64,000 nucleotides of DNA, from assembly GCA_030638825.1 (NCBI GenBank), contig DAOWDU010000031.1:4206-68205 (forward strand), written 5' to 3'. The position numbers were made by a program, and so were the translations under genes. Source of the stretch: a bacterium (lineage in GTDB: Bacteria > Patescibacteriota > Minisyncoccia > JAHIHE01 > JAGLIN01). Shown here one piece after another: positions 5,981-61,778 of the stretch (within the stretch, counting starts at the first letter, position 1; every line of letters starts with the position of its first letter). The notes beneath the pieces are model-generated. The model was given only the letters and a program-made list of their open reading frames with translations. It was not told the DNA's origin and did not search any database.

Positions 5981-6126
5981 AGTGTTTGTTAAAAATATTA
6001 TTTCTGCATAGCATTGTTCTTAGATTTCTCGCCTTAAAGGGTTCGAAATGACACAAAATAAGGAATGACAATTTATAAAAACAAAACCCGAAATAAATTC
6101 AGGTCGTCAGCAAAGATGCGCAAAAA

Positions 6127-6206
6127 CTGGAGTTCACACTTTAGTGTGTAAATTTTAATTTAAATGAAATAAATTCTTACAGGTTAAAACCTGAACTCCA
6201 GAATTT
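6127..6206. repeat. Palindromic repeat family E (ctggagttcacactttagtgtgtaaa...tacaggttaaaacctgaactccag)
   Basis: Terminal inverted repeats ctggagttca/tgaactccag. A near-identical copy lies at 38035-38115 inside prmC. Confidence 0.7.
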
Positions 6207-13504: not shown

Positions 13505-13670
13505 ATATTTAAACCAACCTATTTTTTAAAGCTGTAATTTTCAATTTCTAATTTCTAATTTTTATTGAATTTCTAATTCTTTAATTTCTAATCTTAAAAC
13601 TTCAAAATTGAAAATTAATTATTGAAAATTTAATAGAAATTAGAAATTAGAAATTAGAAATTTTTTACAG
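13505..13670. repeat. AT-rich palindromic array (agaaatt / aatttct units) in the rpsC-rplP intergenic region
   Basis: Inverted arrays of aatttctaatttctaat are mirrored by attagaaattagaaatt. A similar block lies at 37501-37655. Confidence 0.6.
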
Positions 13671-22886: not shown

Positions 22887-23062
22887 AGGAATTATTATTT
22901 ATACTATTTTATTTATGTGTGTAGATTAGCATAGATATTTTTTTTGTCAAATAAAAGAGTTGAAACTTATTGAAACTCGTAGAAATTAGTAGAAATTTAT
23001 TGTAGTAATTTACAATTAATTTCCACAAATTTCGCATAGCGAGTTTCCATTAATTTCCTTTT

Positions 23063-25721: not shown

Positions 25722-25812
25722 AAGAGTTCGTTATAGTTAAAAGTTTGTAAAGTTATAAAGTTATTTTATTTTTGGAGTTCAGGTTTTAACCTGCAAGAAA
25801 TTTCTTTCACTT

Positions 25813-37077: not shown

Positions 37078-37500
37078 ATGTCAACCCCAAAAATAAACCT
37101 CCAAATAATCACCCCTGAAAAAATCGCTTATAAAGATAAAGCGGATCAGATTACTTTGCCGACGGGAGATGGGGAGATAACCATTATGGCAAATCATATC
37201 CCGCTGATTAGCACGATGAAGCACGGGGAATTAGTTATTAAAAACGACGGGAAAGAAATTCCAATGGCAGTTTGCAATGGGTTTATTGAAGTGAAAAGAA
37301 ACTGCATAATTATTATGACCGATATCGCCGAACGAGTGGAAGAAATTGATGAGCAAAAAGCGGAAGAAGCAAAGAAAAAAGCGAAAGATTTATTAAAAGA
37401 AAAAGACAGAATATCTGATGTTGCGTTTGCGGATGCGACAGCGTTGTTGGAAAAATCGCTGGCGAGGATTAGAGTGGCGAGGAGAAGGAAACGAAGGTAA
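37078..37500 (+). CDS. atpC: F0F1 ATP synthase subunit epsilon
   Basis: An N-terminal beta-sandwich is followed by C-terminal helices, in the atpC position. Confidence 0.85.
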   Translation: MSTPKINLQIITPEKIAYKDKADQITLPTGDGEITIMANHIPLISTMKHGELVIKNDGKEIPMAVCNGFIEVKRNCIIIMTDIAERVEEIDEQKAEEAKKKAKDLLKEKDRISDVAFADATALLEKSLARIRVARRRKRR

Positions 37501-37655
37501 ACAAATTTCTAATTTTCAATTTCTAATTTCTATTGAATTTCTAATTCTTTAATTTCTAAATTTTTTATTATTTAAAATGTTGTTTGAAAATTTAGTTATT
37601 GAAAATTTAGTTATTGAAAATTTAATAGAAATTGAAAATTAGAAATTAGAAATTA
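37501..37655. repeat. AT-rich palindromic array (aatttctaat / attagaaatt) after atpC
   Basis: It mirrors the block at 13505-13670. Confidence 0.6.
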
Positions 37656-37658
37656 ATT

Positions 37659-38672
37659 ATGAATGTTCAACAAGCTCTCAAAGCTTCCGCTAATAAATTG
37701 AAATTACAAAACATCTCCTCTTTCGTTCTTGATGTAGAAGTTTTATTGTTGGAAGCGTTGAATAGAAATAACAACGCCCCTCACCCCAGCCCTCTCCCGC
37801 GGGGAGAGGGAGCTAAAAATAAAAGTTGGTTGTATTTGAATAATGAATATATTTTAAATAAAAAAGAAGAAGAATTATTTAATGATTTTATAAAGCAGAG
37901 GTTAGAAAATAAACCAGTTGCTTATATCATCAATAAAAAAGAATTTTACGGGTATGACTTTTATGTTGATAAAAATGTTTTAATCCCCCGCCCCGAAACG
38001 GAATTAATGATTGAAGAAGTTTTGAAAATTTTATCTGGAGTTCACACTTTAGTGTGTAAAAATTCAGACACAAATAAAATAAATTCCTACAGGTTAAAAC
38101 CTGAACTCCAGAATTTTAATTTAATAGACATCGGCACAGGATCAGGATGTATCATTATAAGTATTTTAAATGAATTAACAAAAAATAAAATTAATAAAAT
38201 TATTTACAACGCTTACGCAAACGATATTTCTTTAGAAGCGATTAATGTAGCAAAAATAAATGCGAAAAAATATAATCTAAATAAAAAAATAAGATTTATT
38301 AAAGATGATTTTGAAAAGTTTTTAGATAAAGAAGATATTTATACTTCTGATAAAATTATTATCACCGCCAATTTGCCCTACATAAAAAATGGCGACTATA
38401 AAAATCTTTCTGAAAATGTAAGAAAATACGAACCTAAAATCGCGCTCACAGCGGGAAAAAACGGCTTAGATTATATAGGAAAATTAATTAATTTAATATC
38501 TAAAAAACAACTAAAATCAAATCAGAAAATATACTTATTTCTTGAAGCCGATCCAGATCAGATGAGTGAAATAACGGCTATTTTAAGGGAAAGGTTAGCT
38601 AATGTAGATGTTGAAATTATTAGAGATTTGAGTGGTAAAGAAAGGATTGTTAAATTATTATTTGGAAATTAA
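37659..38672 (+). CDS. prmC: HemK/PrmC-family protein-(glutamine-N5) methyltransferase, carrying two in-frame palindromic-repeat insertions
   Basis: The motifs IDIGTGSG (motif I) and NLPY (an NPPY variant) are present. Inserts lie at 37779-37812 and 38035-38115. Confidence 0.7.
   Translation: MNVQQALKASANKLKLQNISSFVLDVEVLLLEALNRNNNAPHPSPLPRGEGAKNKSWLYLNNEYILNKKEEELFNDFIKQRLENKPVAYIINKKEFYGYDFYVDKNVLIPRPETELMIEEVLKILSGVHTLVCKNSDTNKINSYRLKPELQNFNLIDIGTGSGCIIISILNELTKNKINKIIYNAYANDISLEAINVAKINAKKYNLNKKIRFIKDDFEKFLDKEDIYTSDKIIITANLPYIKNGDYKNLSENVRKYEPKIALTAGKNGLDYIGKLINLISKKQLKSNQKIYLFLEADPDQMSEITAILRERLANVDVEIIRDLSGKERIVKLLFGN
38035..38115. repeat. Family-E palindromic element inserted in-frame within prmC
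   Basis: It is near-identical to 6127-6206 and encodes SGVHTLVCKNSDTNKINSYRLKPELQNFN. Confidence 0.7.
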
Positions 38673-38829
38673 TTGAAACTCGTAGAAATTTGTTGAAATT
38701 AATTGTTGTTTAAAAAATACAATTGAATTTCTATAAATTTCTACGAGTTTCTACAAATTTCTATATGCGCAGCAATTTAGACAAATCTAAAACACGGCTA
38801 TCATAAACCGTGCTTAGATTTGCAAAAAA

Positions 38830-39069
38830 TTATTTTCTTTTTTTAACAGTTTTTCTTTTGGCTGGTTTTCTTTTAGCTGGTTTCTTCGCAACTTTTTTCT
38901 TCGCTGGTTTTCTTTTAGCAGTTTTTTTAACAACTCTTTTCTTCGCTGGTTTTTTCACAACTTTTCTTTTAGCTGGTTTCTTCGCAACTTTTTTCTTCGC
39001 TGGTTTTCTTTTTGTAACCACAGCGCTCACCTCCTTTCTTTTTAAATGTTTTTCGAAAATAAATCCCAA
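38830..39069 (-). CDS. Histone H1-like Lys/Ala/Pro-rich tandem-repeat DNA-binding protein
   Basis: There are 7 repeats of a KKPAKRKVV-type unit, encoded by a 27-nt tandem repeat. The antisense ORF 38810-39082 is a shadow. Confidence 0.55.
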   Translation of the reverse strand: MGFIFEKHLKRKEVSAVVTKRKPAKKKVAKKPAKRKVVKKPAKKRVVKKTAKRKPAKKKVAKKPAKRKPAKRKTVKKRK

Positions 39070-59077: not shown

Positions 59078-60328
59078 TTATCCATTGAGATTAACTGGAT
59101 TCCCGCCTCCGCGGGAATGACAGAAAACAAGCTTCTTTATTTTCTCTCTAAAAACATCCTCTGAAAACTTCTCCGCCTGTTTCTTAATTTTTTCAGCATC
59201 ATAGTTATTATAATTATTTTTCATTCTCCTCACGCCGTCCGCTAAGATTTCGGGGATTGGATCGTCAAAAAATTCTCCTGTTTTTCCTTCAATTACTGTT
59301 TCTAAAACGCCTCCTTTTCTATACGCCAAAACTGGTTTGCCAAAAGACATTGCTTCAATTGGCGTTATTCCAAAATCATCTTCTCCCGGAAAAATAAACG
59401 CGTAACAATTTTCATAATATTGCGCGAGTTTTTCTTCTGGTTGAAATCCAAGAAATTTAATGTTCTTATTCGCTATTTTCTCAAGTCTTTTTTTATCTTC
59501 GCCCTCCCCAATGATCACAAGCGGCAATTCCAGTTTATTAAACGCTTCAATCGCAATATCTATTTTTTTATAAGGACTAAGACGAGAGACTACCAGGAAA
59601 TAACTATTATTATCTGTCATTGCGAGAAAGCCCGATTGAGCGTAGCGAAGAGAAGGCGACGAAGCAATCCCATGATTAAATTCATCGCGCGTAGTTGCGG
59701 GATTGCTTCGTCGCTCTGCGGAGCTCCTCGCAATGACAGTGTTCGTCGGCGGATAAATCACTTCACTCTCTCTTCCATAAAACTTCTTAATCCTCTTCGC
59801 GGTATGCTCTGAATTGGCGATGAAATAATCAACTCGCTCTGAAGCTGATTTGTCCCACATTCTTAAATAATGTAAAAACGGCAAAATAATTATTTTTTTA
59901 ATTCCGTTGATTTTATTTTCCTCAAGATAATTATAATACCAATCCCAAAGAAATCTGGTCGGAGTGTGGCAATAGCAAATGTGAACCGCTTTTGGTTTGG
60001 TAATTACTCCTTTCACAAATGAACTTGAAATGGAAATAACAACATCAAAATCCCTCAAATCAAAAGTCTCCGCCGCAGTCGGCATAAATGGCAATAGATA
60101 CTTTTTTCGCTTTTTTATAAACTTAGGCAACCTATTTAAAAACGAACTTCTTATTTTCGCACCAGGAAAATACTTCTTCATTTTTTTCTCATCATACAAC
60201 AAAGTATAAATCGGCGCGTCTGGATATAATTTATGCAACGACATCAAAACCCTTTCGGCTCCACCGAAGTAAGTTAAAAAGTCGTGAACAATCGCTATTT
60301 TTGGTTTTTGGGATGAGGGGGTTGACAT
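59078..60328 (-). CDS. GT4-family glycosyltransferase with an in-frame family-A repeat insertion
   Basis: The GT4 N- and C-domain sequences (EX7E region, GEFFDDP) are present. The insert lies at 59614-59739 in the interdomain linker. Confidence 0.7.
   Translation of the reverse strand: MSTPSSQKPKIAIVHDFLTYFGGAERVLMSLHKLYPDAPIYTLLYDEKKMKKYFPGAKIRSSFLNRLPKFIKKRKKYLLPFMPTAAETFDLRDFDVVISISSSFVKGVITKPKAVHICYCHTPTRFLWDWYYNYLEENKINGIKKIIILPFLHYLRMWDKSASERVDYFIANSEHTAKRIKKFYGRESEVIYPPTNTVIARSSAERRSNPATTRDEFNHGIASSPSLRYAQSGFLAMTDNNSYFLVVSRLSPYKKIDIAIEAFNKLELPLVIIGEGEDKKRLEKIANKNIKFLGFQPEEKLAQYYENCYAFIFPGEDDFGITPIEAMSFGKPVLAYRKGGVLETVIEGKTGEFFDDPIPEILADGVRRMKNNYNNYDAEKIKKQAEKFSEDVFREKIKKLVFCHSRGGGNPVNLNG
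59614..59739. mobile_element. Family-A TIR element inserted in-frame in the GT4 gene
   Basis: It runs from ctgtcattgcgagaaagcc through gacgaagcaatcccatg...cgggattgcttcgtc to gagctcctcgcaatgacag. It encodes about 42 aa without a stop. Confidence 0.75.
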
Positions 60329-60641: not shown

Positions 60642-61778
60642 TCAATTCAACAACACTCCCATCGTCTCCCGCGCGCACTTCTCCCAACTAAATCTCCCAA
60701 CATTCTCAAATCCCCTTTCAATCATTTTATTTCTCAAATCATCATCATTAAAAACTTTACTCATCGCCTCAGAAATTTCTTGAATATTATTTGGATCAAT
60801 TAATAAAGCAGCACCCCCTGCCACTTCTGGCAAAGATGAAGTATTAGAACAAACCACAGGAACGCCATAACTCATCGCTTCTAAAACTGGCAAACCAAAT
60901 CCTTCGTAAAAAGATGGTAAAATAAATAAATCAGCATTTTGATATAACTCTTCTTTTTCTGATTCGGAAATATAATCTTTTAAAATAATATCTTTTTTAA
61001 ACTGCGATTCCTGAATTGTAGTTTTTATTTCCTCAAAACCAAATCCAGCTTTTCCAACTAAAATCAATTGCGAAGGCGACATTCCGGAATGTCGCCTTCG
61101 CAATTGATTTTTAAACAATTCAAACGCTTTGACTAAATTTACAATATTCTTCCTCTTCTCTAACCTTCCTAAAAATAAAACATTAAATTCTATTTTTGGA
61201 GTAAGGGCTTCAGCCCGAATTTGTACTAAATTATTTTGTTTCACTTTCGGGCTGAAGCCCTTACTCCAATTACTGTTTACCCCATGATAAACAACATTTA
61301 TTTTCCCCTCCTCAACTCCATAAAACTTAATCAAATCTTTTTTAGTATTCTCCGATGGGACAATAATTTTGCTTGCTAATTTTATTGAAAGTTTAGTATT
61401 AATTTCTAAAATCATTCTCTCTTTAAGAGAATAGCATTCGGGAAAATATTTATATTCCAAACCGTGGATTGTTACGACAGTTTTGGACGGATGGACTTGA
61501 GGAACAGCGTAAGCTGGAACAAACAAAACATCTGGTTTATTTTTCATCATTTCAGACGCCAACCCAATCTGCGTCCAGAATTTATTTGGAGAAATAATTT
61601 TCAATTTAAAATTACTTGGTAAATCAAAATCTATGACCAGATTTTTTCTTGCATATAAAAAAATCTGATGGCTTTTTAAATCCATCATCGCTAAATTCTT
61701 AATCAACTGATAAGAATATTCTTCTATCCCAGTTTTTTCTTTTTCAAACGCTCGTGAAGCGTCAATACCGATGTTCAT
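60642..61778 (-). CDS. GT4-family glycosyltransferase with an in-frame family-B hairpin insertion
   Basis: GT4 motifs are present. The insert at 61198-61267 lies in the interdomain linker. Confidence 0.7.
   Translation of the reverse strand: MNIGIDASRAFEKEKTGIEEYSYQLIKNLAMMDLKSHQIFLYARKNLVIDFDLPSNFKLKIISPNKFWTQIGLASEMMKNKPDVLFVPAYAVPQVHPSKTVVTIHGLEYKYFPECYSLKERMILEINTKLSIKLASKIIVPSENTKKDLIKFYGVEEGKINVVYHGVNSNWSKGFSPKVKQNNLVQIRAEALTPKIEFNVLFLGRLEKRKNIVNLVKAFELFKNQLRRRHSGMSPSQLILVGKAGFGFEEIKTTIQESQFKKDIILKDYISESEKEELYQNADLFILPSFYEGFGLPVLEAMSYGVPVVCSNTSSLPEVAGGAALLIDPNNIQEISEAMSKVFNDDDLRNKMIERGFENVGRFSWEKCARETMGVLLN
61198..61267. repeat. Family-B hairpin element inserted in-frame in the GT4 gene
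   Basis: The sequence ggagtaagggcttcagcccgaat...ttcgggctgaagcccttactcc encodes SKGFSPKVKQNNLVQIRAEALTPK. Confidence 0.75.

Follow-up and report, generated by a model that had tools for sequence, protein, structure and literature searches.

To our knowledge, in-frame 'selfish' palindromes in housekeeping proteins have been regarded as a peculiarity of Rickettsia, and we know of no function or mobility mechanism assigned to the BoxC/PIT/TM_ECO motif since the 1990s. As relayed in PMC2229807 and PMC10969869 from Ogata et al. (2000, 2002), Rickettsia palindromic elements (RPEs) are 105–150 nt long, and the Rickettsia Gmk that carries an RPE insert is translated and active. The TM_ECO motif is reported from 262 proteobacterial genomes; in MG1655, TM_ECO/PIT is reported to be always intergenic and multi-copy, with no associated mobility genes (Holder et al. 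2015, PMC4666352). The same study detected no promoter, terminator or expression effect of PIT/TM_ECO in E. coli, and showed by circular dichroism and nuclear magnetic resonance that E. coli variants adopt, in vitro, an intrastrand triplex that is stable (PMC4666352). Here we consider a 64,000-nt stretch of Patescibacteriota DNA (assembly GCA_030638825.1, contig DAOWDU010000031.1, positions 4,206 to 68,205; hereafter the window), in which the essential gene prmC, which encodes the release-factor N5-glutamine methyltransferase, contains two unrelated repeats, a GC-rich motif of the BoxC/PIT/TM_ECO type and a member of a palindromic family that we call E. Probably, two permissive surface loops of PrmC have been colonised by these two small repeats, which are read through as extra peptide.

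The gene occupies 37659..38672 on the plus strand and is an intact open reading frame (ORF) of 337 aa. Its product scores 205.2 bits against the TIGR03534 equivalog model, whose curated cut-off is 199.1, and 40.2 against the PrmC_N domain (PF17827; cut-off 23.4), and it aligns with the HemK/PrmC structures of T. maritima and E. coli. An AlphaFold model (42 homologs; mean pLDDT 84.6, pTM 0.82) superposes in Foldseek on 1nv8 and 2b3t_A with a target-normalised TM of 0.85–0.91. The motif I that binds S-adenosylmethionine (SAM), D/E-x-G-x-G-x-G, is D157-I-G-T-G-S-G163 and is unchanged in 42 clade homologs, among which 55 alignment columns are invariant. Motif IV is N238-L-P-Y241 (38370–38381), differing at position 2 from the canonical NPPY of the aligned T. 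maritima HemK. Since every one of the 42 clade members in the alignment has NLPY, insert-free homologs included, the motif belongs to the lineage and is no sign of damage. The gene sits after atpC (ATP synthase epsilon), as in every ortholog fetched. Judged by family scores, predicted fold and synteny, the ORF can be taken for a true PrmC/HemK, which by family assignment would methylate the GGQ of RF1/RF2; the PrmC-like methyltransferase of the preliminary description is in this respect well founded. The GC content of the window is about 34%, and its nearest relatives are Patescibacteria metagenome-assembled genomes labelled Moraniibacteriota or Parcubacteria. Among the DNA compared, the closest is L173, a metagenome contig with 97% identity over 2.4 kb, followed by L001 (84–89%).

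The shortest PrmCs of the clade have 299–305 aa. The window protein exceeds them by about 38 aa, a surplus confined to two places: site 1, in the N-terminal domain between its helices 2 and 3, and site 2, between helix 112-126 and strand beta-1, 5 residues ahead of motif I. The only segments of the AlphaFold model with pLDDT below 50, aa 39–50 and 128–149, are the two inserts. At the codon level, filled and empty sites differ by the element alone. The empty site 2 of homolog P0012 reads 'tta aac aat aat aag aaa ttt aat', and the filled site of the window 'tta t[ct gga gtt ... ctc cag] aat ttt aat'. The junction and insert peptides encoded include INSYR, LKPELQNFNLIDIGTGSGCIIISILNELTK and APHPSPLPR. 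The distant homologs lack both inserts, as do the basal ones of about 300 aa; insert 1 is absent from most homologs, and occupancy is patchy even among PrmCs about 3% apart. Both inserts are thus non-ancestral, and both are in frame. Neither is an assembly artefact, since the separate contig L173 carries both unchanged and with the frame kept; the frameshift or stop that could have undone the preliminary description was not encountered there. The loop before beta-1 of a Rossmann-like methyltransferase lies on the edge opposite the SAM pocket, and the site 2 insert would accordingly lie on that edge. A scan for terminators and promoters gave no terminator-like sites, so the inserts are not intrinsic terminators, and promoter-like sites at chance level; an Rfam scan of 37400–38800 at E<=1 gave no match to E or the GC element.

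Insert 1 lies at 37778..37810 on the minus strand and encodes about A40–A52 at the first site. It consists of three blocks (plus-strand positions 37778–37786, 37790–37798 and 37802–37810), and the minus strand from 37810 to 37778 reads CCCTCTCCC-CGC-GGGAGAGGG-CTG-GGGTGAGGG. The blocks at 37790–37798 and 37802–37810 make a perfect inverted repeat of 9+9 bp with a 3-nt loop (CCCTCTCCC/GGGAGAGGG), and the third block, at 37778–37786, is CCCTCACCC. The minus strand is a strict regular-expression match to the published consensus CCCTCNCCC-N3-6-GGGNGAGGG-N3-GGGNGAGGG (PMC4666352), from which an intrastrand triplex is predicted; of the two strands, the purine (triplex) one serves prmC as template. 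The preliminary description had read this segment as a 34-bp perfect hairpin at 37779–37812, a reading that gives way to the 9+9-bp hairpin plus third block, while the peptide that it had reported, PHPSPLPRGEG, is indeed encoded, between A40 and A52. The element is unique in the window, where none is expected by chance, and it is the only 30-nt stretch of the 64 kb with at least 25 G/C.

Copies in E. coli are 92% identical over 97% of a 38-nt query and occur in 5407 of 5426 complete genomes. A metagenome scan for the 21-nt hairpin returned at least 133 copies, with contigs of 41–76% GC among the matches listed. The third block stands on one side in 96 of the 133 listed copies, always the C-rich side, and on both in none, which fits a three-block triplex architecture. 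A simple long hairpin, with an outer stem of CCCTCACCC...GGGTGAGGG, had been entertained as well and was rejected, both outer boxes being present in 0/133 listed copies. The family thus occurs well beyond the gene, in E. coli and in metagenomes, and is not multi-copy either in the window or in 426 kb of related Patescibacteria DNA, where it was found at PrmC site 1 only (window, P0001, P0009 and P0006). By its sequence, the GC element is a known motif in a new setting, outside Proteobacteria and inside a coding sequence.

The three PrmC lineages that carry the motif (the window, P0001, P0006 and P0009 genes) share all 27 of its 27 stem bases, and every difference among their motifs falls in the two loops. 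The PrmC cores of these lineages are 78% identical overall and 68–70% identical at third codon positions. Conservation of the stems despite such diverged third positions points to a constraint on the nucleic acid and not on the peptide. Elsewhere, on metagenome contigs of higher-GC organisms, a TM_ECO-type motif stands in frame, within or between domains, in four hosts that a Pfam check showed to be bona fide proteins: an alanyl-tRNA synthetase (AlaRS; L063), an Eco57I-type methylase (L167), a PPDK_N enzyme (L135) and a GT4 glycosyltransferase (L070). In the methylase, it stands just ahead of the NPPY motif, and both strand orientations are met in coding DNA. Another metagenome contig, L149 (58% GC), has seven exact hairpin copies; three of these, on one strand, follow each other head-to-tail about every 40 nt (GCCCCTCACCCTAACCCTCTCCCGCGGGGAGAGGGAACAT...), so that the triplex motif is here arrayed in tandem, and the array is not a CRISPR array.

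Insert 2 is a copy of family E, of its 77-nt subfamily, at 38035..38111 on the plus strand, and encodes S126–Q151 at the second site. Its core, CTGGAGTTCA...TGAACTCCAG, comprises a 25-nt left arm (38035–38059) with the hairpin CACAC-TTTA-GTGTG (38043–38056), a variable spacer (38060–38086) and a 25-nt right arm (38087–38111) with the hairpin CAGGT-TAAA-ACCTG (38090–38103). The termini are 10-bp perfect terminal inverted repeats. The in-frame element of the preliminary description is therefore real, with a core of 77 nt in place of the 81 bp (38035–38115) given there, and it does stand directly before motif I, the peptide ending 5 residues ahead of D157-IGTGSG-163. A second full copy, of 75 nt, lies at 6127..6201 (+), 10 nt downstream of the secY stop codon; two full copies in the window compare with 0.00 expected. 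This copy had been put at 6127–6206 and called intergenic and near-identical. It is intergenic, and the likeness holds for the 25-nt arms, which are identical or 1 base apart; the central spacer differs in length and sequence, so that identity is 83% over 69 nt. The spacer of the 6127 copy holds stop codons in the 'coding' frame. A solo right arm (..GCAGGTTAAAACCTGAACTCCAA), without a left arm and outside long ORFs, is found at 25772..25797 (−). Downstream of secY, the window (6085–6201) and contig L030 (5447–5530) both have a small hairpin, ACCYGAAATAAATTCAGG, and after it an E right arm; the two secY genes are 81% identical and the complete E is in the window only. The position of the arm beside the secY stop appears to be conserved between the two.

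The E sequence has folding z-scores of −4.0 to −5.1, and its predicted RNA is more stable from the minus strand (−28.7 kcal/mol) than from the plus strand (−21.5 kcal/mol). Hairpin 1 covaries, with a score of 0.556 against 0.157 in shuffles, a value reached by 0/500 shuffles; three of its five pairs change on both sides, in 33 cells, giving stems such as CACAC/GTGTG, CACTC/GAGTG, CACGC/GCGTG, CAGAC/GTCTG and CAGGC/GCCTG, among others. The spacer of several copies (L013 77–150, L016 and L038) holds a different, GC-richer module, CCTTCGACAAGCTCAGGATGACA, with the peptide LRQAQDDK, which shows these repeats to be mosaics of exchangeable hairpin modules.

An exact 20-mer scan with the right arm over 185,579 species genomes gave 42 copies of E in 40 loci, all on AT-rich contigs of Patescibacteria type, three of which bear other bin labels. 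The forms are of 53–57, 71 and 74–80 nt, plus solo arms. By this distribution, E is a new family of palindromic repeats specific to Patescibacteria. Ten of the 42 copies in this unbiased census lie in long ORFs, which encode RecG, an Elp3-like radical-SAM protein, a MurD-like ligase, ArgRS and membrane proteins. One orientation and one frame are common to these 10, G-V-H-S-L-E-C...Y-R-L-K-P-E-L-Q, and the minus orientation has one open frame as well. Counting the two PrmC sites, there are about 8 independent host sites, all plus (two-sided binomial p ~0.008). Coding cores measure 53, 71, 74, 77 or 80 nt, all of them 2 mod 3, and intergenic cores may additionally be of 54, 57, 58, 75, 76, 78 or 79 nt. 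The single orientation and frame, the 2-mod-3 length and the avoidance of stops argue that the coding copies are translated and not removed. The right arm of E is identical among PrmC genes that are only 78–85% identical overall. The genomes of such bacteria are about 90% coding, and a share of 10/42 in long ORFs then speaks for tolerance of coding DNA and not for a preference. Of the proposal that palindromic families in this genome tolerate or prefer coding insertions, it is thus the first half that survives, and it extends to other families of the window, which lie in frame in genes such as those of two glycosyltransferases.

Both PrmC loops are hot spots. Among 120 PrmC homologs, each holds at least six different repeat-derived peptides. 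Site 1 may be empty or contain the triplex motif, E (71- or 80-nt forms), two '...APRNDN' elements related to the TGTCATTGCGAGGAGC family of the window, or others. Site 2 may be empty or contain E of the 77- or 71-nt subfamily, a truncated E (P0006 and P0059), a GVQNF footprint that represents fused E ends (P0034), or one of several other peptides (YPALAEG, GHxxCPSP, QACL, RRRH, SLGAGSYQ and KRRRTNVC). Each site has taken up different E subfamilies (site 1, E-71 and E-80; site 2, E-77 and E-71), which implies at least four independent E insertions. On a neighbour-joining tree of this single gene, built from 299 core columns, occupancy changes between PrmCs about 0.03 apart, which requires recurrent and recent gain and loss. 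For instance, P0028 has neither site filled and P0025 only site 1, with an RNDN-type element, whereas RNDN is accompanied by E in P0007 and by GHxxCPSP in P0022. The empty sites consist of A-rich Lys/Asn codons, which could favour targeting.

Some occupants of these loops deserve mention in their own right. P0016 carries one 23-aa E peptide (EVHSLECKNAIPSSAYRLKPELR) twice, once at each hot spot, which suggests that a single active copy inserted two times or that one site was converted by the other. At site 2 of the P0009 prmC (L172, about 1055–1110), a 30-bp perfect palindrome, TGTAGTGGACAGGCATGCCTGTCCACTACA, encodes CSGQACLSTT; this QACL-type family is common to P0009, P0014 and P0033. Two glycosyltransferase ORFs of the window, both on the minus strand, have repeat-derived interdomain linkers. 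That at 59078–60328 contains, in frame, ...VIARSSAERRSNP...HGIASSP..., from a 142-nt family at 59614–59755, and that at 60642–61778 contains KGFSPK, from a hairpin at 61236–61269, plus RRRHSGMSPSQ, a peptide similar to the RRRH element that other genomes have at PrmC site 2.

These observations can be assembled into a tentative course of events. E is a non-autonomous palindromic repeat of 53–80 nt that probably spreads within Patescibacteria genomes, and the GC element is a copy of the cross-phylum BoxC/PIT/TM_ECO triplex motif. Copies may land in A/T-rich DNA, including the Lys/Asn-rich codons of loops. Purifying selection would then spare, among coding insertions, only those in disordered loops that keep the frame and avoid stops, in keeping with the pattern described above; for E, this would leave one frame per orientation and core lengths of 2 mod 3. 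The survivors stay constrained at the level of the nucleic acid, as the covariation of the E stem and the invariant triplex stems show, presumably through structure-dependent selection or through homogenisation among copies. Finally, they decay by in-frame deletion, a pattern seen in the truncated E of P0006 and the GVQNF footprint of P0034. In sister lineages, the same two loops have been struck repeatedly by several element families.

Several points weigh against colonisation of two permissive loops as we have described it. The catalytic NLPY of this PrmC is non-canonical. That the insert-bearing enzyme is still functional is most likely, its activity and the translation of the inserts being deduced. 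The hot-spot survey covered full-length proteins, a set in which frameshifted (dead) alleles stay hidden, and the recurrence that it revealed could come from a selection filter (survivorship in tolerant loops), from a preference for certain targets, or from the two together. Over the 426 kb of related DNA the GC element is a single-copy feature, and its carriers have similar flanks (RAC RAC G | TM | AGM TAR), which would fit one old acquisition over ongoing mobility. Around some 25 copies of E we found no target-site duplication, target motif or common flank. A search of about 430 kb for a parent insertion sequence, with E ends 0.3–4 kb apart, gave weak one-mismatch pairs only, and two scans of viral contigs gave zero matches to E arms. 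Given no duplication, no transposase with matching ends and no viral copies, the mobility of E is deduced from its distribution only.

A different explanation of the inserts is that they have been domesticated, their nucleic-acid structures modulating the translation, transcription or mRNA stability of prmC, or their peptides adding function. It is tempting to see support for this in the retention of all 27 triplex stem bases in three lineages despite about 30% divergence at nearby synonymous sites, in the unchanged right arm of E among diverged prmC genes, in the covariation of hairpin 1, and in the strict orientation bias of coding E copies, the RNA of the opposite strand being the one that would fold more stably. 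However, recent spread or gene conversion among copies could give the same conservation. Many close relatives do without either insert, the same loops are home to unrelated elements, some alleles are truncated or reduced to a footprint, and the insert peptides are predicted to be disordered; moreover, PIT/TM_ECO had no promoter, terminator or expression effect in E. coli (PMC4666352). We regard domestication as unlikely, though stem conservation and the bias in orientation leave it some weight.

It could also be argued that two insertions in a 1-kb gene, the non-canonical NLPY and an NCBIfam score barely above the cut-off betray a decaying pseudogene or a non-functional PrmC paralog, in which the inserts are simply damage. 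This we hold to be very improbable, because the ORF is intact over its 337 aa with its motifs and the 55 invariant columns of the 42 clade members conserved, NLPY is equally invariant in insert-free homologs, and the position after atpC is kept in every relative. The frame is kept in the 97%-identical relative, the insert-bearing alleles of many lineages are all in frame, and the fold prediction is confident outside the inserts. As for the proposal that the segments are ancestral variable loops of PrmC, lost elsewhere and only secondarily similar to intergenic repeats, both sites are indeed naturally variable linkers, and the T. maritima HemK has a short linker at site 2. We nonetheless give it almost no credence, since the same E arms are intergenic and present in at least six unrelated host proteins, and the same element may occupy either site in different PrmCs. 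Intergenic repeats of E. coli match the GC element at about 92% identity, the element is a compositional outlier in a genome of 34% GC, and distant homologs lack both inserts. The pseudogene, ancestral-loop and artefact readings are all contradicted by the data.

Colonisation of permissive loops, if it is correct for PrmC, raises the question of its generality. It is conceivable, though we would not at present rate it as probable, that Patescibacteria harbour a whole community of short structured elements, TM_ECO included, that recurrently enter in frame a few permissive loops of essential proteins. Such elements would be RPE-like on the scale of a phylum and its proteome and would form fast-turnover 'expansion segments', with nucleic-acid-level selection or structure-directed insertion behind the hot spots, the orientation and the stems. 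In the open-access literature we found no description of in-frame palindromic elements or MITEs (transposable elements of the miniature inverted-repeat kind) in the candidate phyla radiation (CPR)/Patescibacteria, nor of TM_ECO/triplex motifs inside genes, an absence that is no proof of novelty. The same behaviour as in Rickettsia, with new families in reduced-genome, host-dependent Patescibacteria, suggests a general outcome of weak selection acting on structured repeats, which would be a route to new protein segments. The filled, empty, truncated and replaced prmC alleles offer a comparative system for testing what such motifs do. There is also a practical side, in that such inserts leave the protein alignments and HMM scores of CPR genomes inflated and fragmented, and this PrmC barely passes its cut-off.

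On either side of prmC there is a long AT-rich imperfect palindrome. One, with 61-nt arms (37504–37647), fills the atpC–prmC spacer, and the other, with 52-nt arms (38660–38766), extends over the stop codon of prmC; 13522–13667 and 22944–23006 hold related copies. In Rfam, the downstream palindrome gave sub-threshold matches to plant miRNA precursors. Convergent to prmC is a minus-strand ORF (38830–39069) for a Lys/Ala/Pro-rich protein of 79 aa, with KKPAKRK repeats that derive from 27-nt tandem units. All relatives have a small minus-strand gene, of 70–88 aa, at the matching position.

How, then, does this locus compare with known systems? Like 2b3t (E. coli) and 1nv8 (T. maritima), the window PrmC has the two-domain fold and motif I and scores above the TIGR03534 cut-off; it differs from them in about 38 extra residues in two loops and in having NLPY for NPPY. 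With MITEs, namely the 107-bp form of Correia/NEMIS and ERIC (Delihas 2007, PMC2229807), E has in common that it is small, A+T-rich, non-autonomous and bounded by terminal inverted repeats, and that open-frame forms are fused into ORFs while stop-bearing forms are intergenic (PMC2229807). Correia/NEMIS and ERIC, however, have TA or other target-site duplications and candidate transposases (PMC2229807), neither of which was seen for E; as no target-site duplication accompanies it, we do not file it as a classical MITE.

The closest parallel is with the RPEs. As far as the accounts cited above describe them, both are short palindromes with terminal inverted repeats that occur between genes and, in frame, at fold-compatible positions of conserved housekeeping proteins; both belong to reduced-genome, host-dependent bacteria, and neither has a clear target-site duplication or transposase. 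E differs in its size of 53–80 nt, in its phylum, and in its two mini-hairpins, one of which covaries, with a variable spacer. In addition, several unrelated families have, in sister lineages, entered a single protein at the same pair of loops, and the coding copies have one orientation. The likeness to RPEs is functional and by description, and E is therefore not filed as a member of an RPE family. The GC element, for its part, resembles TM_ECO (Holder et al. 2015, PMC4666352) in its exact consensus, in its identity of about 92%, in conserved stems with varying loops and in having no known mobility genes, and it stands apart as a single copy, in frame inside a coding sequence, in a Patescibacteria genome of 34% GC.

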